In this document: positions 1 to 14,880 of the stretch, piece by piece
How the letters are laid out: each line of letters starts with the position of its first letter
How positions within the stretch are numbered: the first letter of the stretch is position 1
NCBI GenBank assembly: GCA_035699625.1
Contig: DASSPM010000008.1
Location: 1-47,872 of the forward strand
From: Candidatus Limnocylindrales bacterium
GTDB taxonomy: Bacteria; Chloroflexota; Limnocylindria; Limnocylindrales; CSP1-4
Length of the DNA: 47,872 bases
Direction of reading: 5' to 3'
The notes under the pieces: model-generated
What the model saw: only the letters and a program-made list of their open reading frames with translations
Told to the model about the DNA's origin: nothing
Database searches by the model: none
Program-made: the position numbers and the translations under genes

Positions 1-1278
1 CACGGCCACCACCGCCAGCACGCTCACCCAGCCGCCGGCCTCGACCGCGGCCAGGATGACGTAGGCCTTGGCGAAGAAGCCGGCCAGCGGCGGGATGCCC
101 ACCAGCGAGAGCAGGAAGAGCGTCATCACCGCGCCCGCCACCGGCGCCCGGCGCCCCAGCCCGGCGAAGGTCTCGATCTGGCTGGTCACGCCGCGGCGGC
201 CCTGGAGCATGGCCACCACGGCGAAGGCACCGAGGTTCATGAAGGCGTAGGCGGCGGCGTAGAAGATGACCCCGAAGAGGCCCGCCCGCTCCGCCTCCGA
301 GCCGGCCGGCGAGCCGGCATAGGCGGCCAGGCCGACGAGCATGTAGCCGGTATGGGCGATGGAGCTGTAGGCGAGCATGCGCTTGATGTTGTCCTGGGTC
401 AGGGCGACCAGGTTGCCCAAGGTCATGGTCGTCGCCGCCAGGGCCACCACGAAGGGCGTCCAGTCGGCCTTGACCGGCCCGAGCGCGTCCACGAAGAGGC
501 GCAGGATGAGCGCGAAGGCGGCCACCTTGGGGCCGACCGAGAGGTAGCCCGTGATGGGCGTGGGCGAGCCCTGGTAGGCGTCGGGCGTCCAGTAGTGGAA
601 GGGCACCGCGGCGATCTTGAAGGCGGCGCCGGTCGTCAGCAGCGCCAGGCCCATGGCGAGGCCGGGCGGGAAGGGCGCCGCGCCCGTGCCCACGCCGGCG
701 AGCGCCTGGGCGACCTCGGCGATGCGCGTGCTGCCGCTGAAGCCCCAGGTGAAGGCCAGCCCGAAGAGGAAGATGGCGCTCGAGAATGAGCCCAGCAGGA
801 AGTACTTGATGGCGCCCTCGGTCGAGTAGCCGTCGCCCTTGGCGTAGCCGGCCAGCATGTAGCCCGGCAGGACCATCAGCTCGAGGCCCAGGAAGAGCAC
901 CAGCAGGTCGCGCGAGCCGGCGATGAGCATGGCGCCGCTGATGGCGAAGAGGAGCGTCGCGCAGAGCTCGGCCATGGGCAGCCGCCGCACGCGCAGGTAC
1001 TCCGGGGCAAAGAGGATGGTCAGCAGGGCCACGGCCAGGAAGAGCAGGTCGAGGAAGCTGGTCAGCGCATCGCGCACGTAGGCGCCGCCGAAGGCCTCGC
1101 GCGTGCCGCCGCCCGCGGCCAGGCCGACCACGGCCATGCCCACCACGGTGCCCAGGCCGGCCAGCCCGCCGGTGATGTCGTCGCGGCGGGGGGCCAGGAT
1201 GTCGGCCAAGATGACCGCCAGGGCGAGGCCGACGACATAGATCAGCGGCGCGATGGCCGACAGCTCAGCGCCGGTCAT
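1..1278 (-). CDS. nuoN: NADH-quinone oxidoreductase subunit N (3' end runs off window)
   Basis: Manual translation from ATG at 1278 (not in ORF track because no stop in window): MTGAELSAIAPLIYV...EGAIKYFLLGSFSS...FKIAAVPFHYWTPDAYQGSPTP...NIKRMLAYSSIAHTGY...SLVGIPPLAGFFAK, diagnostic antiporter-like NuoN motifs; follows nuoM. Confidence 0.95.
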   Translation of the reverse strand, partial: MTGAELSAIAPLIYVVGLALAVILADILAPRRDDITGGLAGLGTVVGMAVVGLAAGGGTREAFGGAYVRDALTSFLDLLFLAVALLTILFAPEYLRVRRLPMAELCATLLFAISGAMLIAGSRDLLVLFLGLELMVLPGYMLAGYAKGDGYSTEGAIKYFLLGSFSSAIFLFGLAFTWGFSGSTRIAEVAQALAGVGTGAAPFPPGLAMGLALLTTGAAFKIAAVPFHYWTPDAYQGSPTPITGYLSVGPKVAAFALILRLFVDALGPVKADWTPFVVALAATTMTLGNLVALTQDNIKRMLAYSSIAHTGYMLVGLAAYAGSPAGSEAERAGLFGVIFYAAAYAFMNLGAFAVVAMLQGRRGVTSQIETFAGLGRRAPVAGAVMTLFLLSLVGIPPLAGFFAKAYVILAAVEAGGWVSVLAVVAV

Positions 1279-1291
1279 GCCCCTGCTCCCA

Positions 1292-2818
1292 TCAGCGCAG
1301 CCCCGCCAGCGTGACGCGGTCGATGGCCTCGAGCACGTCGGTCACCGGCGCGTGCAGCAGCTCCAGCACGAGACCCGGGAAGACGCCGAAGACCAGCGTC
1401 AGCGCCGCCAGCGGCGCCAGCGTGGCCAGCTCGACCGGCCGCATGTCGGTCAGGTGGTGGCCCAGGCCGCGCAGGAAATCGGAGAGCTCGCCGAAGACGA
1501 CGCGCTGGAACATCCACATCAGGTACGCCGCCGAGAGGATGACCACGACCGTGGCCACGGCCGCCGCGGCCGGGTTGACGGCGAAGGTGCCGACCAGCAC
1601 CAGGAACTCGCCCACGAAGCCGGCCAGGCCGGGCAGGCCCAGGCTGGCCAGCATGAAGAAGCCGAAGACGGCGGCGTAGACCGGCGTCGGCGCGGCCAAG
1701 CCGCCCATGCGCGCGATGGTCCGGTCGTGGGTGCGCTCGTAGATGACGCCCACGAGCAGGAAGAGGGCGCCCGTGATGAGGCCGTGGTTGACCATCTGCA
1801 GGATGGCCCCCTCGAGCGCCTGGGGCTGGAAGACGAAGATGCCCAGGGTCACGAAGCCCATGTGGCTGACCGAGGAGTAGGCCACCAGCTTCTTGAGGTC
1901 GGGCTGCACGAGGGCCACGATGGCGCCGTAGATGACGGCGATGAGCGAGAGCACGATGATGGCCGGCGCGAAGGTGTGTGCCGCGTCGGGATAGAGCGGC
2001 AGTGCGAAGCGGATGAAGCCGTAGCCGCCCAGCTTCAGCAGCACCCCCGCCAGGATCACCGAGCCAGCCGTGGGTGCCTCGACGTGCGCGTCGGGCAGCC
2101 AGGTGTGGAACGGGAACATCGGCACCTTGATGGCGAAGGCCAGGAAGAAGGCCACGAAGGCGAACAGCTGCAGCTCCTGGGCGAAGCCGGCCGTGGCCAT
2201 ATGGCTCACCAGGCGCTCGTAGTCGAAGGCGCCGGCCCAGGACCCCGTCGCGGCCTGGTAGGCAAAGGCGGTGGCCAGGATGGCCACCAGCATCAGCAGC
2301 GAGCCGACGAGCGTGTAGAGGACGAACTTGATGGTGGCGTAGATGCGGTTGGCGCCGCCCCAGATGCCGATGATCAGGTACATCGGCACGAGCACGACTT
2401 CCCAGAAGACGTAGAAGAGGAAGAGGTCGAGGGCGACGAAGACGCCGAGCATGCCGACCTCGAGCACGAGGAAGGAGATCATGTACTCCTTCACGCGCTC
2501 CTGGATGGGCCCGAAGCTGGCCAGGATGCTGATCCAGGTGAGCAGCGTGGTGAGCACCACCATGGCCACGGCCAGGCCGTCCACGCCCATCTTGAACTGC
2601 ACGCCGAAGGCGGGGATCCAGTCGGCGGCAACGACGTACTGGAAGCCGCTCGCCTTGGGGTCGAGGCCGGCCAGCAGCAGCAGCGAGAGGCCGAAGCTGA
2701 CCAGCGAGGCGGCCAGCGCGCCCCAGCGGATGAGGTCGCTCCGCTCGCGCGGCACGAAGGCCAGCGCCACGGCACCCGCCAGGGGCACGAAGGTGATGGC
2801 CGGCAGCAGCCACTCCAT
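1292..2818 (-). CDS. nuoM: NADH-quinone oxidoreductase subunit M
   Basis: C-terminal part of ORF 1292..4576 from MEWLLPAITF (ATG 2818, overlaps the nuoL stop as TGATG); motifs LFYVFWEVVLVP, AFAIKVPMFPFHTWLPDAHVEAPT, LKKLVAYSSVSHMG. Confidence 0.95.
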   Translation of the reverse strand: MEWLLPAITFVPLAGAVALAFVPRERSDLIRWGALAASLVSFGLSLLLLAGLDPKASGFQYVVAADWIPAFGVQFKMGVDGLAVAMVVLTTLLTWISILASFGPIQERVKEYMISFLVLEVGMLGVFVALDLFLFYVFWEVVLVPMYLIIGIWGGANRIYATIKFVLYTLVGSLLMLVAILATAFAYQAATGSWAGAFDYERLVSHMATAGFAQELQLFAFVAFFLAFAIKVPMFPFHTWLPDAHVEAPTAGSVILAGVLLKLGGYGFIRFALPLYPDAAHTFAPAIIVLSLIAVIYGAIVALVQPDLKKLVAYSSVSHMGFVTLGIFVFQPQALEGAILQMVNHGLITGALFLLVGVIYERTHDRTIARMGGLAAPTPVYAAVFGFFMLASLGLPGLAGFVGEFLVLVGTFAVNPAAAAVATVVVILSAAYLMWMFQRVVFGELSDFLRGLGHHLTDMRPVELATLAPLAALTLVFGVFPGLVLELLHAPVTDVLEAIDRVTLAGLR

Positions 2819-4785
2819 CAGCGGCCCGCCACGAAGAGGAAGCCGCCGGCCATCACGAGCAGGCCGAGGGCGATGAAGAAGGCATAGTTCTGGACGCGGC
2901 CCGTCTGGACCTGGCGCACCTGGCGGCCGCTCTGCTGGGTGAGCCAGCCGATGCCGTTGACGGCCCCGTCGATGACGTGCACGTCGAACCACCACATGGC
3001 GTGAGCGACGACGCCGCCGATGCGCACGAAGAGCAGGTCGTTGAGCTCGTCGAACCACCACTTGTGGTAGGACGCCGTGTAGAGCGGCCGCAGCTTGAAG
3101 GTGAGGCGCTCCACCAGCGCCGGCCGCGGCGCGGCCTCCCGGCCGAAGAGCGGCAGCAGGCCGAAGAAGCGCACGGCGACGAGGATGCCCAGCAGCCCGG
3201 CGGCGATGCTGACCGCCATCAGCACGCCGTCGATGCCGAAGAACTGGAACGAGGCAGCATGGTGCCCGAGCGCTTCCCGGGCTTCGTGGAAGACCGGTTC
3301 CAGCCAGCCGTGCAGGAAGCCGTCCTCGGGCGGGAAGCCGATGAGCGCGCCGAGGATCAGCGTCGGCACGGCCAGCAGCCAGAGCGGCAGGGTCATCACC
3401 GGCGGCGACTCGTGCACCTTGGGCTCGACGTGTGGATCGACGTGCGACGGCCCGTAGAACGTCTTGCCCATCAGCCGGAACATGTAGAAGGCGGTCAGCG
3501 CGGCGACCACCACGCCGATGCCCCAGACCCAGTAGAAGCCGGTCTTGAAGGCCTCGCCCAGGATCTCGTCCTTGCTGAAGAAGCCCGAGAGCAGGGGGAA
3601 GCCCGAGATGGCCAGCGCGGCGATGAGCATGGTCAGGTGCGTCTGCGGGATCTTCCGCCAGAGCCCGCCCATGCGGTTCATGTCCTGCTCCTCGTGCACG
3701 GCATGGATGACCGAGCCGGAGCCGAGGAAGAGGAGGCCCTTGAAGAAGCCGTGGGTCATGAGGTGGAAGATGGCCGCCGTGAAGGCGCCCACGCCGAGGG
3801 CCGCGAACATGTAGCCCAGCTGGCTCAGCGTGGAGTAGGCCAGGACGCGCTTGATGTCGTTCTGGGTGAGCGCGATCGACGCGGCCAGGATGGCCGTGAA
3901 GATGCCCACCGCGGCGACCACCACCATGGCCGTCGGTGCCTGGGCGAAGATGGGGCTGGTGCGGGCGACCATGTAGACACCGGCGTTGACCATGGTCGCG
4001 GCATGGATGAGGGCCGAGACCGGGGTCGGGCCTTCCATCGCGTCGGGCAGCCAGACGTGCAGCGGGAACTGCGCGCTCTTGCCCACGGCGCCGGCGAAGA
4101 GGAGCAGCGCCATGACCGTCACGGCCATGGGCGAGAGCGCCCCGTCGTGCACCAGCTCGGGGATGCGCTCGAAGACCTCGCCGAAGTCGAGCGTGCCCAC
4201 GACGGTCCAGATCATCATGATGCCCAGCCCGAAGCCGAGGTCGCCCACGCGGTTGACGATGAAGGCCTTCTTGGCCGCCAGGGCCGCGCTGCGCCGCGTG
4301 TACCAGTAGCCGATGAGCAGATAGCTGCACAGGCCGACCAGCTCCCAGGCGGCGAAGAGGAGCAGGAAGTTGTCGGCCAGGACGAGCAGCAGCATGCTGA
4401 ACATGAAGAGGTTGAGGTAGGCGAAGAAGCGCCAGCGACCCGGCTCGTGGGCCATGTAGCCGATCGAGTAGACGTGCACCAGCATGCCCACCGTGGTGAC
4501 CACGATGAGCAGCGCCGCGGTCAGGTTGTCGACCAGGAAGTTGGCCGCCACGCTGAACTCCCCGGCCGGGATCCACTCGTAGAGCGTGAACCGCAGGCCG
4601 TGCTCGCCGTAGGCGCCGCTGAGGGCGCTGAAGACGACCACCATGCCGATCAGCCAGGTCAGCACGATGGCTGGCACGGCGATGATCCAGGCGCGCGTGG
4701 TGAGCCGCCGGCCGACGGCCGCGGTGAGCGCGAAGCCACCCAGCGGCAGGGCCAGCAGGAGCGAGACGAGCAGCTCGTGGGACAC
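2818..4785 (-). CDS. nuoL: NADH-quinone oxidoreductase subunit L
   Basis: 655 aa; WELVGLCSYLLIG, GKSAQFPLHVWLPDAMEGPTPVSALIHAATMV, DIKRVLAYSTLSQLGYM, C-terminal QTGRVQNYA. Confidence 0.96.
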   Translation of the reverse strand: MSHELLVSLLLALPLGGFALTAAVGRRLTTRAWIIAVPAIVLTWLIGMVVVFSALSGAYGEHGLRFTLYEWIPAGEFSVAANFLVDNLTAALLIVVTTVGMLVHVYSIGYMAHEPGRWRFFAYLNLFMFSMLLLVLADNFLLLFAAWELVGLCSYLLIGYWYTRRSAALAAKKAFIVNRVGDLGFGLGIMMIWTVVGTLDFGEVFERIPELVHDGALSPMAVTVMALLLFAGAVGKSAQFPLHVWLPDAMEGPTPVSALIHAATMVNAGVYMVARTSPIFAQAPTAMVVVAAVGIFTAILAASIALTQNDIKRVLAYSTLSQLGYMFAALGVGAFTAAIFHLMTHGFFKGLLFLGSGSVIHAVHEEQDMNRMGGLWRKIPQTHLTMLIAALAISGFPLLSGFFSKDEILGEAFKTGFYWVWGIGVVVAALTAFYMFRLMGKTFYGPSHVDPHVEPKVHESPPVMTLPLWLLAVPTLILGALIGFPPEDGFLHGWLEPVFHEAREALGHHAASFQFFGIDGVLMAVSIAAGLLGILVAVRFFGLLPLFGREAAPRPALVERLTFKLRPLYTASYHKWWFDELNDLLFVRIGGVVAHAMWWFDVHVIDGAVNGIGWLTQQSGRQVRQVQTGRVQNYAFFIALGLLVMAGGFLFVAGR

Positions 4786-4787
4786 GG

Positions 4788-5099
4788 CTACTGGCGCATC
4801 CGGTCGTACTCGTCCACCAGCGGCGTGCGCCGGTTGCGGTAGATGGCGATGACGATGGCCAGGCCGACCGTCGCCTCGGCCGCCGCCACGGCCATGACCA
4901 TCAGGGCGATGACCGAGGCGTCGCCGCGCAGCGGCGGGATGAAGGCGCCGAAGGCGACGATGGCCAGGTTGACCGCGTTGAGCATCAGCTCGATGGACAT
5001 GAGCATGGCGATGGCGTTGCGCCGGGAGAGGAAGCCGAAGGCGCCGATCGAGAAGAGCAGCACCGAGAGCATCAGGTAGGCCTCGAGCGACTGGCTCAC
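4788..5099 (-). CDS. nuoK: NADH-quinone oxidoreductase subunit K
   Basis: GTG 5099 overlapping the nuoJ stop (GTGA); [20 protein letters not shown]...[19 protein letters not shown], 103 aa. Confidence 0.95.
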
Positions 5100-5677
5100 G
5101 GACCGGCCTCCGGCTCGCTCACCGGTCGCTGCTGCACGATGGACTGCGGCTCGTCCTCGCGCTTGGCCAGGAAGACGCCGCCCACGACCGCGGCCAGGAG
5201 CAGCACGCTGACCACCTCGAAGGGCAGCACGTAGCGGTCGAAGAGGAGGCGCGCCAGCTCGTCGGTGCGCGTGGCCCCGCCCGGCGTGGTCGCCTGCGGC
5301 CAGTCCGTGCCGCTGACGGCGACGACCAGCAGCACGGCCAGCACGATCACGGCGACGCCGGCCAGAGCCGCCTGCGGGTGGAAGACGAGCCTGGCGGGCC
5401 CGACCTTGGTCTGGGTGAGCATGATGGCGAAGAGGACGAGCACGCTGATGGCGCCGATGTAGACGAGCACCTGTGCCGCACCCACGAGCGCCGCGCCGAG
5501 CAGCACGTAGATGCCGGCCAGGGCGGCGAAGGAGAAGATCATCCAGAGCCCGGAGCGGATGATGTCGCGGCCCAGCACGACCAGCAGCGCCGACCCCAGC
5601 ATGATGGCCGCGAAGGCGAGGAAGAGGAGGTCCTCCCAGCGCCACTCCAGGATGGGGATGGTGGGCGGCAGCGTCAC
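5096..5677 (-). CDS. nuoJ: NADH-quinone oxidoreductase subunit J
   Basis: [19 protein letters not shown] and [18 protein letters not shown] motifs; position between the I region and nuoK. Confidence 0.93.
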
Positions 5678-5695
5678 GCCGGCTCCGGACCGCCC

Positions 5696-8293
5696 CTAGC
5701 GGGCATGGGCGTGGCCGCCCCCGGCCGCGCCGTGGTCGTGGCCGTCGTGGGCATGGCCGTCGCCGTGCCCATCGCGCGCGTGGCCGTTGCCCGTGACGCT
5801 CGTCGGCAGCATCGGCAGCAGCCGGTCCGGGCGGACCTGGCGGCCGGAGGCCTGCGCGCGCTGCAGCCAGTCGCGCTCGCGGCGCACGTAGCTGATCTCC
5901 GTGTCGCGATCGATCGCGCTGATGGCCAGCAGGTCGATCATCGGCTCGGCTCGGCTCTCGTGGCTCAGCTCGAAGTCGGGGCCGCAGCGCAGCGCGTCAT
6001 AGGGGCAGGCATCGACGCAGATGCCGCACAGGATGCAGCGGCTCTCGTCCACGTCGTACTGCTCGAGCACGCGCGGCTTGGGCATCAGCGCGCCGGTCGG
6101 GCAGGTCTCGGCGCAGCGGCCGCAGGAGACACAGGGCGTCGTGTTGAGACTCATGTCGAGCGGCGTGGTGACCAGCGTGTCGAAGCCGGTGCGCATGAAG
6201 TCGTAGCAGGCGGCGCCCACGACCTCCTTGCAGACGTTGGCGCAGCGGCCGCAGTCGATGCAGCGCGACGGCTCGCGCAGGATGAAGGCGTGGCTGTCGT
6301 CGCGGATGTAGTCGTGGTTGGTGCCGGTGAAGCGGTTCTCGCCCACGCTGCGGAAGCTGAAGGCGCCGCCGTTCTGCGGTTCGAGCGTCTTGAGCGTGGT
6401 GCCGTACTCGATGCCCTGGCGGCGCAGGTCGCAATAGCCGATGGCCTCGCAGGTGCACTGCAGGCAGCGCTTGGACTCGGCCATCGCCTCCTGCTGCGAG
6501 TAGGGGATCTCGTACTCGACGTAGCTCTCGCGGCGGATCTCGGGCGACATCGCCTTGAGCCGGATGCGCGGCTCCTTGAGCTCGCCCGTGAAGGGCACGA
6601 TGGAGAGGAACTCGGGCTGCGGCTCGGCCAGCGTCTGGCGCGTCCGGATGGCCTCCAGGTCCTCGCCCTGCAGGTAGGCGTCGATGGCGTAGGCGGCACG
6701 CCGCCCCTCGGCGTTGGCCTGCACCACGGTGGCCGAGCCGACGCGCACGTCGCCCGTGCCGAAGACGCCCGGGCGGCCCGTGGCGAAGGTCACCGCGTCG
6801 GCCTTGAGGCGGTTGTTCTTCGTCGCTGCCACGCCGTCCGCGCCGCGCTCCAGCCAGGAGAGGTCCGGGCCCTGGCCGATGGCCAGCAGCACCCGGTCGC
6901 ACTCGATGACGAACTCCGTGCCGGGCATCGGCTCGGGGCGCCGCCGGCCCGAGGCGTCGGGCTCGCCGAGGCGCATGCGCTGGAACTCGACGCCCGTGAC
7001 CTTGCCGCCGTCGTCGGCCAGGACGCGCGTCGGCGCGGCCTGGAAGATGGCCGTGGCGCCCTCCTCGATGGCCTCGTGGACCTCGTTCGCGGCGGGCATG
7101 TCCTTCATGTCGCGGCGGTAGACGAGGGTCACCTCGGCCGCGCCCTGGCGGACCGAGGTGCGCGTGCAGTCCATCGAGGTGAAGCCGCCGCCGATGACCA
7201 CCACGCGCTTGCCCTTGTGCCCGGGATAGGGCAGGCCGAGCGTGGCGATGCGCAGGTACTCGAGGCCGTCGAGCACCCCGTCCGCGTCCTCGCCGGGGAT
7301 GCCCAGCTTGTTCGTGTCGTAGCAGCCGATGGCGATGCAGATCGCGTCGAAGCCCTGGTTCTGCAGATCGTCCAGGGTGAAGTCACGGCCCAGCGCGGCA
7401 TTGGTGACCAGCTTCCCGCCCAGCTGCCAGACCGCGTCGTACTCCGGGTCGAGGATCTCCTCCTTGGGCAACCGGTACTGCGGGATGCCGTAGCGGAGCA
7501 TGCCGCCCTGCTCCGGGTCGCGCTCGAAGACGGTCACCTCGTGGCCGGCGATGAGCAGGTAGTAGGCAGCCGACATGCCCGCCGGGCCCGAGCCGATGAC
7601 GGCCACGCGCTTGCCGCTCTTGGGCTTGACCTCGAAGGGCACGGGCGCCCGGGCACCGGCCTTCTGGAGCTTGAGCACCTGGTCGCCCGCGTAGCGGTGG
7701 CTGTCGCGGATGGCGATGGCCTCCTCCACCTCGTCGCGCCGGCAATGCTCCTCGCAGGGTGCCGGGCAGACGCGGCCGAGCACGCTGGGGAAGGGGATGG
7801 TGCGCTTGAAGATGCGCGCCGACTCGACGAAGTTGCCCTCGGTGTTGGCCTTCAGGAAGCCCGGGATGTCGATGTGGCTGGGGCACTTGTTCTGGCAGGG
7901 CGGCAGGCAGTAGGCGTTGTGGTCGCTGAAGATCAGCTCCAGGTTCGTCTTGCGCAGCTGGCGGATGCGCGGCGTCTGCGTGCGCACGACCATGCCCGGC
8001 TCGGCCTGCCGCGAGCAGCTGATGGGCGGCTGGCCCTCGCCGTCGACGTCCACGACGCACATGCGGCAGGCACCGAAGCCGGGCAGCTTGGGCTCGTAGC
8101 AGAGGGTCGGGATCTCGATGCCGTTGTCGCGGCAGACCTCGAGGATGGTCTGGCCGGCGCGGCCCGTGACCTGGCGCCCGTCGACCTCGATGGTGAAGGC
8201 GGGCGCGCTCAGCGGGCGCTGCGGCGCCTGCGTCTCGAGCAGGCGCTCGATGGAGGCGTCGGCGGCGGAGGCGTGGGGCAGCAGCTCGGTCAT
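5696..8293 (-). CDS. NuoG/StnC-like Fe-S flavoprotein: 2Fe-2S + inserted GltD-like FAD/NADP(H) domain + 2x4Fe-4S, fused to a C-terminal NuoI half
   Basis: ORF 5696..8383, probable start ATG 8293 (MTELLP). PTLCY...GACRMC...ISC (N1b-type); SDHNAYC; PCQNKCP...[12 protein letters not shown]; VIGSGPAG; [11 protein letters not shown]...YRR; [13 protein letters not shown]; [23 protein letters not shown]; then [29 protein letters not shown]. Confidence 0.88.
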
Positions 8294-8339
8294 CGGTCGC
8301 GCACTCTGGGTCGGGGGACCTCGCGCTCGGTGGCCATGG

Positions 8340-9671
8340 TCATCGCACCGGGGCGGCGGCGGTCCGGAGCGGACGGCAGACACCTGCCGGACAGGTGCTC
8401 CGGACGATGTGGTCTTCGAACTCCTGGGCGAAGTATCGCATCCCGCTCATGAGCGGGTTGGGCGCCGTGATGCCGTGGCCGCAGAGCGAGCCGTCGCGGA
8501 TGTCCGCCGAGAGGTCGCTCGCCAGCTGCAGGTCCGTCGGGCGCGGCCGGCCGCCGCTGAAGCGCTCGCCGATCTCGGTCAGGCGGCGCACGCCGATGCG
8601 GCAGGGGATGCACTTGCCGCACGACTCGTCGCTCATGAAGCGGCTCATCAGCGTGGCCAGGTCGACGATGCAGGCGCGCTCGTCGGCCACCACCAGGGAA
8701 CCCGAGCCCATGATCGCGCCAGCCTCGGCGAGGCTGCCGTACCCGAGCGCCACGTCCAGCCCGGCCGCGGGCAGGAAGCCGCCCGACGGGCCGCCCACGA
8801 GGACCGCCTTGAGCGTCGCGCCATCGGCCACGCCGCCGCCGATCTCCTCCACCAGGCTGCCCACGCTGGTGCCCAGCGGGACCTCGACGATGCCCGGCTT
8901 GGCCACGGCGCCGGTCAGCTGCACGAGCGTGGTGCCGCTCACCTCGTCGGTGCCCATGGCGCGGTAGGCCTCGGCGCCGTTGGCCACGATCCAGGGCACG
9001 GCGGCCAGCGTCTCCACGTTGTTGACCAGCGTCGGCTCGCCCCACAGGCCGGCGGTCGCCGGGTAGGGCGGCCGCTGGTCGGGCATGGCGCGCTTGCCCT
9101 CGAGGGCGCGCAGCAGCACGGTCTCCTCGCCCAGCACGAAGGCGCCGGCCAGCGGGCGCAGCTCGATGTGCAGGTCGAAGCCGGCGCCCAGCGCGTCCGA
9201 GCCGATGTAGCCGGCCTCCTCGGCCGTGCGGATGGCCGCGGCCAGGCGGCGTGCGGCGAGGCCGTAGCCGGCCTTGACGACGAGGTAGGCCTGTGTCGCG
9301 CCCACGGCGAAGGCGGCCAGCGCGAGGCCCTCCACGACCGCGTGCGGGTCGAGCTCCATGAGCGTCCGGTCGAGGCTGGCCCCCGGGTCCGCCTCGTAGC
9401 CGTTGGCCACGGCGTAGTGGCGCTCGCCCGGTGCGGCGCGGCAGGCGCGCCACTTCTCGCCGGTCGGGAAGCCGGCGCCGCCCCGGCCGCGCAGCCCGGA
9501 GGCCGTCACGCGGCGGATGAGGCCCTCCGGTCCGATGTCGGCCACGGCCGCCTTCCAGGACGACCAGGCGCCGGCCTTCTCGGCCGCGGCGAGGCCCGCC
9601 TCGGGGTCGTAGCGACCGGCACGCCCGAGCAGCACGCGCGGCCAGCGGCGCGGTCCCTTGAGCAGCTCCAT
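8340..9671 (-). CDS. nuoF: NuoF/HydB-like FMN-NADH binding subunit
   Basis: From MELLKGP (ATG 9671, overlapping the upstream stop); GLRGRGGAGFPTGEKW, GEETVLLRALEGK, PTLVNNVETL, GGPSGG, ESCGKCIPCRIG...SLCGHG (N3), ends HIVRSTCPAGVC. Confidence 0.9.
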   Translation of the reverse strand: MELLKGPRRWPRVLLGRAGRYDPEAGLAAAEKAGAWSSWKAAVADIGPEGLIRRVTASGLRGRGGAGFPTGEKWRACRAAPGERHYAVANGYEADPGASLDRTLMELDPHAVVEGLALAAFAVGATQAYLVVKAGYGLAARRLAAAIRTAEEAGYIGSDALGAGFDLHIELRPLAGAFVLGEETVLLRALEGKRAMPDQRPPYPATAGLWGEPTLVNNVETLAAVPWIVANGAEAYRAMGTDEVSGTTLVQLTGAVAKPGIVEVPLGTSVGSLVEEIGGGVADGATLKAVLVGGPSGGFLPAAGLDVALGYGSLAEAGAIMGSGSLVVADERACIVDLATLMSRFMSDESCGKCIPCRIGVRRLTEIGERFSGGRPRPTDLQLASDLSADIRDGSLCGHGITAPNPLMSGMRYFAQEFEDHIVRSTCPAGVCRPLRTAAAPVR

Positions 9672-10504
9672 CAGGCGCGCCCCGCCGGTGCCGCGGCGGC
9701 CCGGAGGCGCTCGGCGAGGGCGCGCGCGCCGTCGGCGTCGAGGCCCTCCTGGGGCGCGCCGTCGAGGGTCACGAAGGGTCCGCCCGGCGACTCGCCCTGG
9801 CAGTCGGCCGGTGCCAGCCGGGCGACGCCGTCGGGGCTGACGCCGCCCACGCTGGTGCCCAGCGCCTCCTCCAGCGCGGCCACGATGCGGCCGGCGCCGC
9901 GCATGGCGCAGGCGGCGCAGCGGCAGACGCCGATCTCGTGCGTCGTGGGCGGCTCCAGGCGCAGGTGCTCGTAGCTGGTGGCCGTGCCGTAGAGCTCGCT
10001 GTACCAGGCGCCGGTCTGGTGGCTGATGTGCTTGAGCGCCGCCACGGGCAGGTGGCCGTAGGCCTCCTGGGTCCGCTCCAGGATGCGCAGCATCCGCTTG
10101 GGGTCGTACTCCTCCTCTTCCAGGATGCGCTCCAGCGGCCCGAGGTCGACCGGCACGAAGTCGCTGAAGGCCTCGTCCGGCACGGGCCGCCCGGAGCGCC
10201 GCAGGGCCGACTCCTCGCGCCGCTCGGCGTACTGCTCGGCCGGGCCCCAGTGGACGTGGAAGCGGTTCTTGGTGTCCACGCCGCCCATGTCGATGATCTC
10301 GATGGGGCAGGCCTGCGCGCACTGGAAGCAGGTCTCGCACTTGAGGTTGCCGTACTCGTCGTAGAGCAGGATGAGGCGGCCGCGGTGGCGCGGGGCGATC
10401 TCCTGGACCTCCTCGGGGTACTGCACCGTGGCCTTGCGCTGGAGCATGCGCAGCAGCGTGCGGGCCATGCCCTTCACGACGCCGATGCCGGGCATCAGGC
10501 TCAT
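9671..10504 (-). CDS. Fusion of NuoI N-terminal half and NuoE-like 2Fe-2S thioredoxin-fold domain
   Basis: ATVQYPEE...PRHRGRL...CETCFQCAQACP (one ferredoxin motif only), then ILERTQEAYGHLP...LYGTATSY...HEIGVCRCAAC...DG...DCQG (NuoE-like). Confidence 0.85.
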   Translation of the reverse strand: MSLMPGIGVVKGMARTLLRMLQRKATVQYPEEVQEIAPRHRGRLILLYDEYGNLKCETCFQCAQACPIEIIDMGGVDTKNRFHVHWGPAEQYAERREESALRRSGRPVPDEAFSDFVPVDLGPLERILEEEEYDPKRMLRILERTQEAYGHLPVAALKHISHQTGAWYSELYGTATSYEHLRLEPPTTHEIGVCRCAACAMRGAGRIVAALEEALGTSVGGVSPDGVARLAPADCQGESPGGPFVTLDGAPQEGLDADGARALAERLRAAAAPAGRA

Positions 10505-10508
10505 CTGG

Positions 10509-11924
10509 TCACCGCAGCTGCTCGACGACGACGACCGCGGCGGCCGTCACGAAGAGGTTCAGCAGCGCCGCCGGCAGCAGCCACTTCCAGGCGAAGCCCA
10601 TCAGCTGGTCGACGCGCACCCGCGGCAACGTGCCGCGCATCCAGACGAAGACGAAGACGAAGAAGTAGGTCTTGGCCAGGAACCAGATGAGCCCCAGCAC
10701 GACCTCGAAGCTGAGCGTCAGCCAGAGGCCGACGAGGGCGCCGGCGAGGACGTTGAAGAGGATGAAGCCGACCACCAGCGACTTCAGGAAGGACCAGTCG
10801 CTCCTGAGCATCCAGATGGGCAGGGTCAGCAGCAGGATGGCCAGCGGCGGCACGATGAGCACGCCGAATAGGAGCAGGTGGCCCAGGCGCGAGGGGTCGA
10901 TGGTGGGGTCGACGCCGATGCCGAACTGCGAGAGCAGCAGGCCGAGGTCGATGGGTGCCGTCCAGCCGCCCAGGAAGAGCACCACCGTGAGCGCCGAGAG
11001 GATGAAGACGTTGACGTACTCGGCGAAGAAGAAGAAACCGAAGCGCATGCCGCTGTACTCGGTGGCGAAGCCGGCCACGATCTCGCTGTCGGCCTCGGTC
11101 AGGTCGAAGGGCGCCCGGTTGCCCTCCGCCGTGGCGGCGATGAAGAAGATCAGGAAGGCCAGCGGCTGCTGCCAGACGTACCAGTCGAGGAAGGTCAGGC
11201 TGCGCAGGATGGGCGGCCCGCTGGTCAGACCCGACTGGTTGAGCACGATCTGGTTGAGGCTCATCGTGCCGGCCAGGATGATCACGCCGACCACGGCCAG
11301 CGTGAGCGGGATCTCGTAGCTGATGATCTGGGCCGCCGCGCGCAGGCCGCCCAGCAGCGAGTACTTGTTGAAGCTCGACCAGCCGGCCATGAGCAGGCCC
11401 AGCACGGTCAGGCCGCCCATGGCGAAGAAGTAGAGCAGGCCGATGTTCATGTCCATGCCGATGAGGCCGGGCGCGAAGGGCAGCACCAGGAAGGCCAGCA
11501 CGGACGAGAGGTAGGTCACGATGGGCGCCAGGGTGAAGACCGCCACGTCCGCGCCCGTGGGCGTGTAGTCCTCCTTGGCCAGCACCTTGAAGCCGTGGAT
11601 GGCCGACTGGAGGAGGCCCCAGGGCCCGACCCGGTTGGGCCCCAGGCGGAGGTTCATCAGGGCGATGAACTTCATCTCCATGTAGATGATCACGAAGGCC
11701 GTGGGCACGGTGAAGAGGAGCACGGCCGTGGCGGCCACGATGAAGCGGACGATGCCGATGTTGTCGACCGCCAGCTGGATCAGCCAGCCCAGCAGGAAGG
11801 GGATGATGCCCGTGGCCACGCCGGCCACCAGGACGATCGTCAGGAGCAGCAGGAGCAGCAGCAGCGGCAGGACGATCTTGCCCGCCAGCGTGAGGCGGCT
11901 CCAGGGCCGCGCCAGGACGCTCAC
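10509..11924 (-). CDS. nuoH: NADH-quinone oxidoreductase subunit H (long, with extra hydrophobic segments)
   Basis: GTG 11924 overlapping the nuoD stop; RLGPNRVGPWGLLQ, KYSLLGGLRAAAQIISYEIP, AEGNRAPFDLTEADSEIVAGFATEYSG, RGTLPRVRVDQLM. Confidence 0.94.
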   Translation of the reverse strand: MSVLARPWSRLTLAGKIVLPLLLLLLLLTIVLVAGVATGIIPFLLGWLIQLAVDNIGIVRFIVAATAVLLFTVPTAFVIIYMEMKFIALMNLRLGPNRVGPWGLLQSAIHGFKVLAKEDYTPTGADVAVFTLAPIVTYLSSVLAFLVLPFAPGLIGMDMNIGLLYFFAMGGLTVLGLLMAGWSSFNKYSLLGGLRAAAQIISYEIPLTLAVVGVIILAGTMSLNQIVLNQSGLTSGPPILRSLTFLDWYVWQQPLAFLIFFIAATAEGNRAPFDLTEADSEIVAGFATEYSGMRFGFFFFAEYVNVFILSALTVVLFLGGWTAPIDLGLLLSQFGIGVDPTIDPSRLGHLLLFGVLIVPPLAILLLTLPIWMLRSDWSFLKSLVVGFILFNVLAGALVGLWLTLSFEVVLGLIWFLAKTYFFVFVFVWMRGTLPRVRVDQLMGFAWKWLLPAALLNLFVTAAAVVVVEQLR

Positions 11925-13144
11925 TTGTCCACGCCGCCCATGATCGGGTCGAGGCTGGCCATGATGGCCATCGTGTCGGCGATGAGGTTGCCCGGCATGA
12001 GCAGCCCGACCGTCTGGAGGTTGAAGTAGGACGGGTCGTGGATGCGGAAGCGGAAGGGCTGGTCGGAGCCGTCGCTCATGGCGTAGACGGCGTACTGGCC
12101 GCGCGGGCTCTCGAGCGCGGCGAAGGCGCGCCCGGGCGGGATGCGCAGCAGGCGCGGCAGCTTGGCCATGACCGGCCCGTCGGGCATCTGGTGCAGCACC
12201 TGGTCGATGATGTGGATGCTCTGGCGGATCTCGTCCAGGTGGAGCAGGTAGCGCGCGTAGCTGTCGCCTTCGGTGCGCGTCGGGATGCCGAACTCGAGCT
12301 CGGGGTAGACGCTGTAGGGATGCGCCCGGCGCACGTCGTAGGGGATGCCCGTGGCGCGCAGGGGCGGACCCGTGAGGCACATGCGCAGGGCCGTGGCGCG
12401 GTCGATGGTGCCCAGGCCGCGCACGCGCTTGACGAAGATCTCGTTCTCGTTGATGAGCGTCTGGCTGTCCTCGATGCGATGCGCGGCGCGGCTCATCCAG
12501 TCGCCCAGCCGGCTCAGGAAGTCGTGGTTGAGGTCGCCGTTGACGCCGCCGATGCGCAGGTAGTTGAAGAGCAGCCGCTGACCGGTCAGCGAGGCCAGCA
12601 TCTCGACGATCTCGTCACGCTCGATGAAGCCGTAGAGGATGGGCGTCAGGCCGCCCAGGTCGAGCGCCAGCCAGCCCATGAAGAGGGCGTGGCTGGAGAT
12701 GCGGTTGAGCTCCCAGGCCAGGACGCGGATGTACTCGGCGCGGCGGGGCACCTTGAGCTCGAGCAGCTTCTCGGCCGCCAGCACCGGCAGCGCCTCGCTG
12801 AACATCGAGGCGATGTACTCCAGCGGGTCGCAGTTGCTGATGGCCATGTGCCAGTCGCAGTTCTCGCAGATCTTCTCGACGCCGCGGTGGAGGTAGCCCA
12901 GCACGGGGTCCAGGTCGACCACCCGCTCGCCGTCGATCTTGAGCACGACGCGCAGCACGCCGTGGGTCGAGGGGTGCTGCGGCCCGAGGTTGATGAGCAT
13001 CTCGCCGTCGCGCAGCGTGTAGAACTCGGCCTCGCGCTCGGTCTGCGGCGGGTAGGGCGGCACCGCGTCGTAGATGGTGGCGGGCGTGTCGACGATGACC
13101 GTCGGGTCGTCGAGCGAGCGGACGCGGGTCGGGTCGGCGGCCAT
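11921..13144 (-). CDS. nuoD: NADH-quinone oxidoreductase subunit D
   Basis: ATG 13144; NLGPQHPSTHGVLR, GYLHRGVEK, ELNRISSH, ESPRG, RFRIHDPS; no NiFe-binding CxxC motifs seen. Confidence 0.95.
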   Translation of the reverse strand: MAADPTRVRSLDDPTVIVDTPATIYDAVPPYPPQTEREAEFYTLRDGEMLINLGPQHPSTHGVLRVVLKIDGERVVDLDPVLGYLHRGVEKICENCDWHMAISNCDPLEYIASMFSEALPVLAAEKLLELKVPRRAEYIRVLAWELNRISSHALFMGWLALDLGGLTPILYGFIERDEIVEMLASLTGQRLLFNYLRIGGVNGDLNHDFLSRLGDWMSRAAHRIEDSQTLINENEIFVKRVRGLGTIDRATALRMCLTGPPLRATGIPYDVRRAHPYSVYPELEFGIPTRTEGDSYARYLLHLDEIRQSIHIIDQVLHQMPDGPVMAKLPRLLRIPPGRAFAALESPRGQYAVYAMSDGSDQPFRFRIHDPSYFNLQTVGLLMPGNLIADTMAIMASLDPIMGGVDK

Positions 13145-13695
13145 CAGTCCAGCTGGCTCCGGCGCAGGAGGACCTCGTCGGGCGCGTCGGCGGGCGGCGC
13201 GGTCTGCTCCATGTGGCGCACGCCCATGCCCGGCGAGCGGGCGGCGTCGTCGGGCAGCAGGAAGTCCTTGCGCAGCGGGAAGGACTTGTAGTCGGGCGGC
13301 ATGTAGATGCGGCGCAGGTCCCGGTTGCCCTCGAAGATGATGCCGAACATGTCGTAGGCCTCGCGCTCGCCCCACTCCGCGCCCTTCCAGAGGAAGGTCA
13401 CCGAGGGGACGCGCGGGTCGTCGCGCGGCAGGTCGTCGGCGATGACGCGCAGCCAGTCGGGCGAGGTCGCCGACCAGAGATGGTAGACGACCTGCATCTT
13501 GCGGCCCGTGTCGACACCGCAGATGTCGGCCAGCAGCGTGAAGCGCAGGTCGGGGTCGTCGTGCAGCGTGCGCATCACGTCGATCACGTCGCCCGCGGCG
13601 ATGCGCAGCTCGGTCGTGTCCTGCTTCTGCCAGACGGGTCCGAGGAGGCGGTCGCCGAGGCGGGCTTCGAGGCGGCGCTTGAGGGCGCTGTCCGT
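13144..13695 (-). CDS. nuoC: NADH-quinone oxidoreductase subunit C (start uncertain; probably ACG at 13695)
   Basis: LADICGVD, VPSVTFLWKGAEWGEREAYDMFGIIFEGNRDLRRIYMP...FPLRKDF. The reading frame stays NuoC-like for 36 codons upstream of the first canonical start (13587), up to a strong AAAGGAG. Confidence 0.9.
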   Translation of the reverse strand, partial: TDSALKRRLEARLGDRLLGPVWQKQDTTELRIAAGDVIDVMRTLHDDPDLRFTLLADICGVDTGRKMQVVYHLWSATSPDWLRVIADDLPRDDPRVPSVTFLWKGAEWGEREAYDMFGIIFEGNRDLRRIYMPPDYKSFPLRKDFLLPDDAARSPGMGVRHMEQTAPPADAPDEVLLRRSQLD

Positions 13696-13714
13696 CGCGG
13701 GCTCCTTTCGGTGG

Positions 13715-14527
13715 TCAGACGCCGGCCGGCACCGACGGCCCGATCTGGCGCTCGCGCCAGTGGCCGCGCCGCTCGCGGATGAGCTGCTGCAGCTTGAGCA
13801 TGCCGTAGATGAGGCCCTCCGGGCGCGGCGGGCAGCCGGGCACGTAGACGTCCACGGGCATGATCCGGTCGATGCCCTCGACCGTGGCGTAGGAGCGCTT
13901 GTAGCGGCCGCCCGAGCAGGTGCAGTCGCCCATGGCCACGCACCACTTGGGCTCGGGCATCTGCTCCCAGAGGCGCAGCAGCGGACCGGCCATCTTGGTC
14001 GTCAGCGTGCCGGCCACGATGAGCACGTCCGCCTGGCGCGGGCTGGCCCGGAAGGGGAACATGCCGAAGCGGTCCATGTCGTTGCGACTGGTGGCTGCCG
14101 ACATCATCTCCATGGCGCAGCAGGCGAGGCCCGAGAGGAGCGGCCAGAGGCTGTTGAGACGGATCAGGTCGAGCACGTAGTCGGCCGTCGTGGGGATGAC
14201 CTCCAGGGCGCCCGACCAGCGCGCGTTGTCGCTGTGGTCGCCGTGCATGGCCAGCTCGCGCAGGTGGGTCACGGCCGGCGGCCCGGCGTAGGCCGTGGGG
14301 TCGGCCGCCTCCCAGAAGGTGTTGGGCACCACGATCGGCTCGGCCACCGCCCGCTCGCCGCTCGCCTCGAGGCTCATCACGGCCGGTTCATTGCTCGGCT
14401 GGTCGGAGGACATGGGGGTCTGCTCGGCGGCGTCGGACGCGGCGGAAATGGCGGTCGGCTCGGCGGGGGCCGGCTCGGCGGGGGCCGGCTCGCTGCGGGC
14501 GCGGCGGCCGCGCTTGGTCACTTCCAC
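13715..14527 (-). CDS. nuoB: NADH-quinone oxidoreductase subunit B with long N-terminal extension
   Basis: [50 protein letters not shown]; start GTG 14527 or 14521 overlapping the nuoA end. Confidence 0.93.
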
Positions 14528-14880
14528 GTCAGGACCCCCTTGCGCCAGGCGTAGCCCAGCCCGAAGAGCAGGATGGCCACGAAGACGAACATGCTCACCA
14601 GGCCGCCCAGCAGCACGTCCTGGAAGACGAGCGCCCAGAGGTAGATGAAGACGACCTCGATGTCGAAGGCCACGAAGAGCAGGGCATAGATGTAGAAGGA
14701 GAGGCCGAAGCGGCCCCAGGTGTCGCCGTACGTGTCGATGCCCGACTCGTAGGGCAGCCCCTTGTGGCGGTCGCCCTTGTTGCGGTGGCTGAGCAGCCAC
14801 GCCATGACGATCGTGATGAGCACGAAGGTGAACCCGGCGAACGCGAAGCCGAGCACGTACCAGATGCCAGGACCGGTCAC
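14518..14880 (-). CDS. nuoA: NADH-quinone oxidoreductase subunit A
   Basis: 120 aa, 3 TM; [37 protein letters not shown]. Confidence 0.95.

Follow-up and report, generated by a model that had tools for sequence, protein, structure and literature searches.

The 47,872-nucleotide window analysed here, the whole stretch of contig DASSPM010000008.1 from positions 1 to 47,872 (Candidatus Limnocylindrales bacterium, a soil member of the Chloroflexota, assembly GCA_035699625.1), carries on its minus strand an operon for respiratory complex I (nuo) in which a three-gene cassette of the Nfn-Bfu/Stn type lies inside nuoI, and the two halves of this core subunit are fused to the outer proteins of the cassette. 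The gene under study (5696..8293, minus strand, stop codon 5696-5698) encodes an 865-residue iron-sulphur (Fe-S) flavoprotein, similar to StnC/NfnA, whose C-terminal part is the second half of NuoI; the first half is found two genes upstream. A sequence-only reading of this DNA had described the gene as a NuoG subunit with a GltD-like flavoprotein inside it, and had proposed that a proton-pumping complex I had recruited a Stn-like module; it contained nothing on the split NuoI, which accounts for the last ~65 structured residues of the protein. The recruitment itself is supported by the ancestry of all three cassette proteins, by the hallmark motifs of GltD integration, by the location in the only nuo operon of the genome and by the same arrangement in 80 of 80 loci of the class, with the caveats that the module has lost the parts that make Stn bifurcating and that sequence does not separate the three functions offered by that reading (NADPH:quinone oxidoreductase, enzyme with dual NADH/NADPH input, NADP+ reductase driven by the proton motive force). 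From sequence, we consider it probable that the complex works as a non-bifurcating, two-flavin, proton-pumping NAD(P)H:menaquinone oxidoreductase, reversible in principle.

The division of NuoI emerged when the entire assembly (2.41 Mb, 87% complete) was searched with the NuoI profile TIGR01971, whose top two matches are complementary halves located in the nuo operon. Positions 1-66 of the 121 model positions match the first ~85 residues of the nuoE open reading frame (ORF; window 10271-10471, 45.1 bits, E 1e-11), and positions 71-115 match the end of the 865-residue protein (window 5939-6073, 43.8 bits). The nuoE ORF starts with MSLMPGIGVVKGMARTLL..VQYPEE..CETCFQCAQACP; this stretch, typical of a NuoI N-terminus, includes the first ferredoxin motif and runs on into a NuoE/StnA-like domain. 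The C-terminal half (5894..6088, minus strand; residues 736-800, E 3e-11) aligns with the second half of NuoI/TYKY chains (E ~1e-13 to 1e-15) and also with the canonical NuoI of Thermogemmatispora, and it is kept in all lineages compared. No single polypeptide carries both CxxCxxCxxxCP motifs or scores more than 113 bits; all eight cysteines are present across the two halves. Hence, while 2Fe-2S and 4Fe-4S motifs do flank the GltD-like domain as the sequence-only reading stated, the last of them, CxxCxxCxxxCP at residues 753-764, is the second motif of NuoI and not a NuoG-type motif. A separate nuoI or nuoG was found neither in the operon nor, by profile search, elsewhere in the 87%-complete genome, which contains only one nuoH. 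Given the single nuoH and the lack of a canonical nuoG or of another nuoI, the window complex would be the only complex I of the organism, and its NuoI would have to be assembled from two polypeptides.

The remainder of the 865-residue protein is homologous to StnC/NfnA. In a sequence search of the Protein Data Bank (PDB), residues 35-763 were collinear with residues 6-699 of 9bov_A (Caldicellulosiruptor NfnA, E 4e-167) and residues 34-764 with residues 5-700 of StnC from Sporomusa ovata (8oh5_C, E 3e-149); NfnA of Thermococcus sibiricus (9n5u_A) was a third collinear chain, identity to these chains being ~36-47% over residues 35-763. StnC is composed of a [2Fe-2S] domain (1-101), a GltD domain (102-565), NuoG-type clusters and an inactive FdhF-like domain (683-1172) (PMC10482914). 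The protein follows this anatomy up to where the FdhF-like domain would start; it has no FdhF/molybdopterin-like C-terminal domain and stops ~100 residues past the alignment, a length taken up by the NuoI half and a Gly/His-rich tail. In addition, the pair of motifs HxxxC and CxxCxCx5C, described for StnC as marks of GltD integration (PMC7483475), is found here as H125-C129-C133-C137-P and C610-C613-C615-C621, and both are invariant in a 43-sequence alignment that covers two phyla (Limnocylindria and Thermoleophilia). With these two motifs and the collinear alignment, the label StnC-like given by the earlier reading is well founded. An AlphaFold2 (AF2) monomer model built from the same alignment has a predicted local distance difference test score (pLDDT) of 80-97 over the GltD module and is also confident in the [2Fe-2S] part; a Foldseek search with this model returned the 9bov, 8oh5 and 9n5u chains first, followed by NfnI-L, NfnB and GltD at template modelling (TM) scores of 0.77-0.79 (target-normalised). 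StnC, which has the same YRR and Rossmann motifs, binds flavin adenine dinucleotide (FAD) and NADPH in cryo-electron microscopy structures (PMC10482914), and by analogy with StnC the GltD flavin encoded in the window is probably non-bifurcating.

The ~71% GC content of the window goes with long shadow ORFs in every frame. By codon-position GC, the real gene is the one in minus-strand frame 5696-8446 (GC at third positions, 0.96), and composition rules out a plus-strand ORF of 1024 residues (5378-8452) as a GC-rich shadow frame. The frame 5696-8293 has no internal stop and gives 865 residues from its first in-frame ATG (8293); an alternative in-frame GTG at 8383 would overlap nuoF. Pfam detected Fer2_4 (residues 33-107, E 1e-20), Fer4_20 (129-207, 2e-18), Pyr_redox_2 (229-530, 7e-30), Fer4/Fer4_7 (714-769) and, weakly, Fer4_Nqo3 (671-736), and the top NCBIfam model was the GltD-like PRK12814 (34-691), with a weak NuoI match at 741-784. 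The view of this protein as NuoG holds for its place and its motifs: the gene adjoins nuoF in the nuo operon and carries N1b-, N5- and N4-type cluster motifs. It does not hold for the family, since the protein is a StnC/NfnA homologue ending in half a NuoI and reaches 91.9 bits over its whole length against the NuoG model TIGR01973, whose curated cut-off is 470; the matches to this model in the genome cover only positions 1-100 and 116-205 of 606. Neither Pfam nor NCBIfam detected a molybdopterin-type domain in the 865 residues, which agrees with the partial TIGR01973 match and with what the sequence-only reading had noted.

From its N-terminus, the protein consists of a HydA/NuoG-type [2Fe-2S] domain (7919..8197, minus strand; residues 33-125) with Cys65, 76, 79 and 93, ending in His125 of HxxxC, followed by the GltD/NfnB-type module (6659..7918, minus strand; residues 126-545), which comprises the Fer4_20 and Pyr_redox_2 domains. 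This module contains two [4Fe-4S] sites (H-x3-C-x3-C-x3-CP and CPAPCEEHC), the FAD Rossmann motif GSGPAG (in VIGSGPAG) and the NADPH Rossmann motif GGGFTS followed by YRR (in VYRRDM); both Rossmann motifs named beforehand were recovered in the translation. The di-cluster Fer4_20 domain and the FAD and NADPH Rossmann folds, recognised by Pfam and by fold match, are those of GltD/NfnB, and the module matches NfnB/GltD chains of the PDB at E 1e-64 to 1e-81. The GltD models TIGR01316-01318 give domain-level scores of 313-323 bits over residues 131-542, under whole-protein cut-offs of 472-483. The size of ~520 residues previously assigned to the GltD domain is close to the ~480 residues that separate the 2Fe-2S domain from the following cluster motif but too large for the GltD domain proper (131-545, ~415-420 residues). 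Then come a NuoG/HydA-type cluster region (6089..6478, minus strand; residues 606-735), with C610-x2-C-x-C-x5-C621 and further motifs at 678-688 and 721-732, the NuoI half and, in the translation, a C-terminal tail (5699..5893, minus strand) that closes with a low-complexity Gly/His-rich stretch (window 5699-5800). In 115 of the 120 closest homologues, the last 45 residues hold 3-9 histidines; the versions of Candidatus Limnocylindrus, Ktedonobacteria and Thermoleophilia do not have this tail, which could serve in metal binding or assembly. The same genome also contains a stand-alone GltD-like gene (G000:C143:33147-34580) within a 638-residue ORF with ferredoxin motifs, 40% identical to residues 129-614 of the 865-residue protein.

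All three cassette proteins score higher against StnABC/NfnABC chains than against complex I chains. The NuoI(N-half)::NuoE fusion (9671..10504, minus strand; 277 residues) comprises the NuoI half at ~10250-10504 (QYPEE..CETCFQCAQACP) and a NuoE/StnA-like part at ~9674-10177, in which Pfam places 2Fe-2S_thioredx at residues 125-267; among PDB chains, residues 9-93 match NuoI and residues 118-267 are closest to 9bov_C, HydC and StnA. The [2Fe-2S] site of the NuoE part (N1a-type, window 9674-9900) looks degenerate (VCRCAAC ... ADCQGES), with an extra cysteine in the first motif and the fourth cysteine replaced (not CxxxC). Two other Limnocylindria loci (L102, L103) have no second cysteine pair in this part, and Ktedonobacteria are devoid of the entire thioredoxin-like domain. 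The NuoF-like subunit (8340..9671, minus strand; 443 residues), predicted to bind flavin mononucleotide (FMN) and NADH, is of StnB/HydB ancestry; the start of its gene and the stop of nuoE share 1 nt. It scores 425-441 bits against 9bov_B, StnB and NfnB and 388-423 against HydB/Bfu-type hydrogenase subunits, versus 284-306 and 246-266 against the NuoF chains of bacterial and mitochondrial complex I in the PDB. Its FMN/NADH loops (GLRGRGGAGFPTG, GEE, PPYP..NNVET) and N3 cysteine motif are intact; in L102 (family f3) and L103 (Candidatus Limnocylindrus) the second cysteine of the N3 motif CGKCxPC is changed to Ala or Thr, while the window protein retains all of them.

The alignment of the NuoF-like protein to StnB covers only residues 104-528 of 584, which means that the thioredoxin-like domain at the N-terminus and the 2x[4Fe-4S] domain at the C-terminus are both missing. 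Bifurcation in Bfu enzymes takes place at the site [B1-FMN-C1] and requires clusters B3 and B4, and non-bifurcating relatives are without B2-B5; deletion of B3/B4 in HydABC abolishes bifurcation (PMC11829005). A complete bifurcating BfuBC core is present in the Thermoleophilia relative L091 and is missing from the window. Since the NuoF-like subunit is devoid of the B2-B5 domains and the [2Fe-2S] site of NuoE is incomplete, the module is predicted to be non-bifurcating, and the enzyme of the window organism should not bifurcate.

The operon reads, on the minus strand, nuoA-B-C-D-H-[NuoI(N)::NuoE]-[NuoF]-[StnC-like::NuoI(C)]-J-K-L-M-N, that is, 13 genes. Upstream of the cassette lie nuoA, nuoB, nuoC, nuoD and nuoH (10509..14880, minus strand; nuoA at 14518-14880, the starts of the other four being approximate), recognised by the Pfam models Oxidored_q4, Oxidored_q6, Complex1_30kDa, Complex1_49kDa and NADHdh; nuoH ends at 10509, 4 nt before the start of NuoI(N)::NuoE. 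Downstream, nuoJ begins 18 nt past the stop of the StnC-like gene, and nuoJ, nuoK, nuoL, nuoM and nuoN (1..5677, minus strand; nuoJ 5096-5677, nuoL 2818-4785, nuoM 1292-2818) match Oxidored_q3, Oxidored_q2, Proton_antipo_N and Proton_antipo_M. The complex I set is therefore A, B, C, D, H, I (as two halves), J, K, L, M and N, the last cut by the window end, and the ligand motifs of cluster N2 are intact in NuoB. No terminator-like site was found on the coding strand between these tightly packed or overlapping genes; co-transcription of the operon is suggested by this and by the spacing. As for nuoB (13715-14518, minus strand), its first ATG at ~14248 (MHGDHSD...) leaves a gap of ~270 nt after nuoA and its longest ORF overlaps nuoA; the true start is possibly a GTG or TTG.

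We then established how widely the arrangement is kept. Thousands of close homologues occur in soil metagenomes, labelled Chloroflexota or Candidatus Limnocylindrales. In 80 Limnocylindria loci, 76-88% identical to the 865-residue protein and read for gene order as far as each contig extends, the order (A-)B-C-D-H-NuoI(N)-E-F-StnC-like-NuoI(C)-J-K-L-M-N was found without exception (80/80); NuoI(N) and NuoE are joined in frame in 70 of 74 loci, and StnC-like and NuoI(C) are contiguous in 79 of 79. Among 401 Chloroflexota genomes sampled, the fusion gene is present in every genome of the window's family, order and class, Candidatus Limnocylindrus, with genomes of 1.1-1.4 Mb, included. In other families, about 50 genomes encode versions of 800-850 residues with 46-51% identity, covering the NuoI(C) end; the distant ones include metagenome-assembled genomes of Ktedonobacterales and the cultured Thermogemmatispora carboxidivorans (WP_052888283.1). 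Whether homologues usually lie outside nuo operons, the observation that would have spoken against recruitment, can thus be answered: this is true only of distant soluble StnC proteins (40-47% identity) and not of the close family. In the 43-sequence alignment, the Fe-S ligands (the four [2Fe-2S] cysteines, His125 and all cluster cysteines) and the glycine motifs for FAD and NADPH are invariant, and the same holds across the Limnocylindria, Ktedonobacteria and Thermoleophilia lineages. YRR is the majority sequence in the alignment and is kept in Limnocylindria and Ktedonobacteria.

Some related loci depart from the common layout in detail. L104 (G030:C38) and L105 (G233:C1) have two tandem StnC-like::NuoI(C) paralogues after one NuoF-like gene, and the [2Fe-2S] part of the downstream paralogue of L105 matches in two frames, which suggests that this copy is frameshifted. 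In two loci of family f3, in the same class as the window, a gap of ~1.6 kb between StnC-like::NuoI(C) and nuoJ (L102, 11913-13556; L106, 12029-13605) matches none of the Nuo proteins of the window, pointing to an extra gene inserted in the f3 operon. L101 (G325:C8) has nuoB and nuoD matches directly before NuoI(N)::E, with no match to nuoC or nuoH, and L100 (G211:C115) has a second nuoA-B-C-D set ~6 kb past the fusion gene, with no J-N matches in that interval. A representative search also returned StnC-like proteins of 810-880 residues that end in ...DHCARL; several of 810-850 residues (P0135, P0186, P0200, P0205, P0207, P0156) stop exactly at ...NN(V/I)DHCARL, which is where formate dehydrogenases have their selenocysteine (Sec). 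We rejected them as relatives of the window architecture; they are probably GltD-containing StnC/Fdh-type subunits whose gene calls were ended at a TGA read as Sec.

Outside Limnocylindria, the arrangement takes two forms. In Ktedonobacteria, a four-gene cluster nuoB-[NuoI(N)::E']-F-[StnC-like::NuoI(C)] lies between unrelated genes, and sets of nuoA-C-D-H and of L-M-N are found at separate loci (L093, L107, L109; in T. carboxidivorans G111:C1, near 4.766-4.770 Mb). These bacteria also have a complete canonical 14-gene nuo operon with intact nuoI, and NuoD and NuoH of the window are nearer to the A-C-D-H cluster than to this canonical operon. In Thermoleophilia (Actinomycetota), the protein P0136, 43% identical, is encoded in an operon nuoA-B-C-D-H-[NuoI(N)::E]-[F]-[fusion]-J-K-L-M-N, where the F subunit is a full 638-residue BfuB with both extra domains and NuoE has all four cysteines.

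In complex I, electrons pass from the NuoG-type cluster chain to NuoI, then to N2 and quinone. In the window, only ~20 residues separate the last NuoG-type motif from the second motif of NuoI. We infer a two-flavin, non-bifurcating input module because the NuoG-type chain adjoins the NuoI motif, the N2 ligands are intact and the proteins are homologous to Stn and Nfn. With the three-gene cassette (BfuC/StnA-, BfuB/StnB- and BfuA/StnC-like) placed inside nuoI, the NuoI halves would re-form the 2x[4Fe-4S] domain (N6a/N6b) on the Q-module, and the two covalent tethers to NuoI would stand in for the docking role of the absent NuoG C-terminal domain. There would be two nucleotide sites, one for FMN and NADH in the NuoF-like subunit, the other for FAD and NADPH in the GltD domain. 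By homology to the Stn and Nfn structures, NADPH would deliver electrons to the GltD FAD, from where the two GltD clusters and then those of the NuoG type would relay them to the [2Fe-2S] cluster and, beyond it, to the NuoF cluster and FMN; NADH at FMN and NADPH at FAD could both feed the path through NuoI and N2 to menaquinone, assuming menaquinone as the acceptor. Complex I is reversible, and the same path could in principle be run backwards.

Several observations weigh against this two-flavin enzyme. An NADPH site wired to an NADH site would amount to an uncoupled transhydrogenase unless it is gated, and an extra link to NADPH is not obviously needed in a class where 59 of 61 genomes have PntAB. 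YRR is lost in P0136 of Thermoleophilia, showing that the complex can persist without this motif. The nucleotide loop of NuoF is changed across the family (N-x-Y-D/E-x-D-P; N-G-Y-E-A-D-P in the window) relative to the usual N-x-D-E-x-(E/D)-P. The AF2 model has pLDDT <50 over residues 613-803, that is, the cluster region and NuoI-C, from which neither cluster distances nor NuoI docking are derivable. We also considered the absence of PntB from the 87%-complete genome as a sign of a role in NADPH supply and rejected it: since 59 of 61 class genomes carry PntAB, the gene is probably missing only because the assembly is incomplete. A tie to trace-gas H2 oxidation likewise found no support, as a [NiFe]-hydrogenase large subunit did not turn up in the 87%-complete genome.

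Alternatively, the enzyme could be an NADH-only complex I in which the GltD domain is an inherited relic, a scaffold or a source of two extra clusters, with a nucleotide site that is unused or binds NADH. Relic domains do persist in this family, the FdhF-like domain of StnC being catalytically dead and its C1/C2 clusters off pathway (PMC10482914); the second Rossmann region of P0136 is degenerate; and the organism needs an NADH dehydrogenase, the window complex being its only complex I. We nevertheless hold a relic to be unlikely. Neither the FAD GxGxxG and NADPH GxG motifs nor the two GltD cluster sites vary among Chloroflexota and Thermoleophilia, and YRR is kept in Limnocylindria and Ktedonobacteria and is the majority sequence in the 43-sequence alignment. 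Ktedonobacteria, moreover, have the module in addition to a full canonical complex I of the NADH type, which speaks for a function of its own. The conserved GltD site might instead work mainly in the opposite direction, flow driven by the proton motive force from menaquinol, or sideways flow from NADH, reducing NADP+ at the GltD flavin; complex I would then contain an energy-linked source of NADPH. Textbook complex I is reversible, in Nfn and Stn it is a GltD/NfnB fold that reduces NADP+ (PMC10482914), and Ktedonobacteria carriers are described as oxidisers of atmospheric H2 and CO (PMC6776052, PMC13374853). The occurrence of PntAB in 59 of 61 class genomes and the lack of a match to a [NiFe]-hydrogenase large subunit in the 87%-complete genome speak against such a main role, which appears improbable to us, although the direction of flow cannot be read from sequence.

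The Bfu ancestry of all three proteins also brings to mind a ferredoxin-coupled enzyme of the Nuo-Bfu type, in which NADH or NADPH together with reduced ferredoxin would drive quinone reduction; such confurcating complexes have been predicted (PMC9304861). With a NuoF free of B2-B5 and a NuoE one C1 cysteine short in the window, and given that loss of B3/B4 abolishes bifurcation in HydABC (PMC11829005), we regard this as very improbable for the window organism; it may apply to Thermoleophilia. Finally, the nearest characterised relatives are soluble, and the cassette could encode a soluble Stn-like transhydrogenase merely located among nuo genes, outside complex I. We give this almost no credit: the halves of the genome's only NuoI are covalently fused to the outer subunits of the cassette, there is no FdhF-like domain, on which the Stn tetramer is built, and the cassette lies between nuoH and nuoJ in 80/80 loci and with nuoB in Ktedonobacteria. 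The proton-pumping NAD(P)H:menaquinone oxidoreductase with two flavins hence remains our preferred reading.

If it is correct, an NADPH-type flavoprotein in the cluster chain would be a new entry point to a proton pump, linking anabolic NADPH to respiration and the proton motive force, and a NuoI divided between two subunits is a new docking mode for an input module, with bearing on the modular assembly of complex I in evolution. To our knowledge, every characterised complex I is fed by NADH through NuoEFG (bacteria, mitochondria), by ferredoxin (NDH-1) or by F420H2 (Fpo), and we know of none with a direct link between the NADPH pool and that force. We tentatively entertain, as no more than a possible history, an independent second route by which a module for nucleotide oxidation was added to an ancestral complex I of 11 subunits: an Nfn-Bfu cassette capable of bifurcation would have entered nuoI, the Thermoleophilia form being nearest to the ancestor and those of Limnocylindria and Ktedonobacteria being stripped to two flavins, and the NADPH pool would be coupled directly to the proton motive force, by a proton-pumping NADPH:menaquinone oxidoreductase or, in reverse, by an NADP+ reductase driven by that force. 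Limnocylindria are an abundant class in soil and freshwater; the variant is the only complex I detected in the window genome, is present in all sampled Limnocylindria and extends to Thermoleophilia and Ktedonobacteria. Because a cultured organism, T. carboxidivorans (WP_052888283.1), carries the variant, its function is testable at the bench, with the canonical complex I of the same organism as an internal control.

Compared with canonical complex I, the window gene occupies the position of nuoG (Nqo3/75 kDa) and has the N1b-type [2Fe-2S] domain and N4/N5-type motifs of that subunit, but its product lacks the molybdopterin-like domain and has an inserted flavoprotein of 420 residues. The motifs of NuoI (Nqo9/TYKY) and their flanking signature residues (QYPEE; YD.D..RC; P.FE) are retained, whereas NuoI is shared between two polypeptides and the gene order is H-E-F-G instead of E-F-G-H-I. 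With StnC/NfnA (BfuA; StnABC of S. ovata, 8oh5; NfnABC of Caldicellulosiruptor saccharolyticus, 9bov, and of T. sibiricus, 9n5u), the protein shares the order [2Fe-2S] domain, GltD module after the His of HxxxC, CxxCxCx5C and two ferredoxin-type motifs, as well as StnA- and StnB-like partners. It differs in that the C-terminal half of NuoI takes the place of the ~480-residue FdhF-like domain that makes up the core of the tetramer. Its B partner has no B2-B5 sites, its C partner is fused to the N-terminal half of NuoI and has an incomplete cluster site, and the genes belong to a nuo operon; Stn and Nfn, in contrast, are soluble enzymes (for Nfn-Bfu, PMC9304861). NfnB/NfnL, GltD, SudA and the N-terminal module of dihydropyrimidine dehydrogenase have the two [4Fe-4S] sites, the FAD/NADPH Rossmann folds with YRR and the fold in common with the GltD module, which is here internal to a larger Fe-S protein.

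Two known systems come close to the whole arrangement. In Nuo-Bfu, a predicted 14-subunit (A-N) complex I of Deferribacteres, Proteobacteria, Planctomycetes and Nitrospirae, BfuABC replaces NuoEFG and the enzyme is predicted to be ferredoxin-confurcating (Schut et al. 2022, PMC9304861). It likewise has a Bfu-derived module in the middle of the nuo cluster, and this operon position fits the window; in the available part of that source, however, neither a GltD domain nor a split NuoI is mentioned for Nuo-Bfu, while the window module is of the Nfn type with GltD, lies inside nuoI, has a truncated BfuB stripped of its bifurcation domains and belongs to an operon of 13 genes. In Mbx-like operons, gltD-like flavoproteins replace NuoI (Degli Esposti 2015, PMC4758237). 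There too a GltD-type NAD(P)H flavoprotein accompanies a complex-I-like membrane enzyme at the NuoI position, but it reportedly substitutes for NuoI in an Mrp/Mbx-type complex, whereas the window keeps a split NuoI, embeds the flavoprotein in a StnC-like protein with NuoE- and NuoF-like partners and retains the full Nuo membrane arm. We found no description of a StnC/GltD-type subunit in a nuo operon, or of a split NuoI, in the open-access literature, which is absence of evidence. The window system joins two known ones, complex I and Nfn-Bfu/Stn, through a split core subunit.

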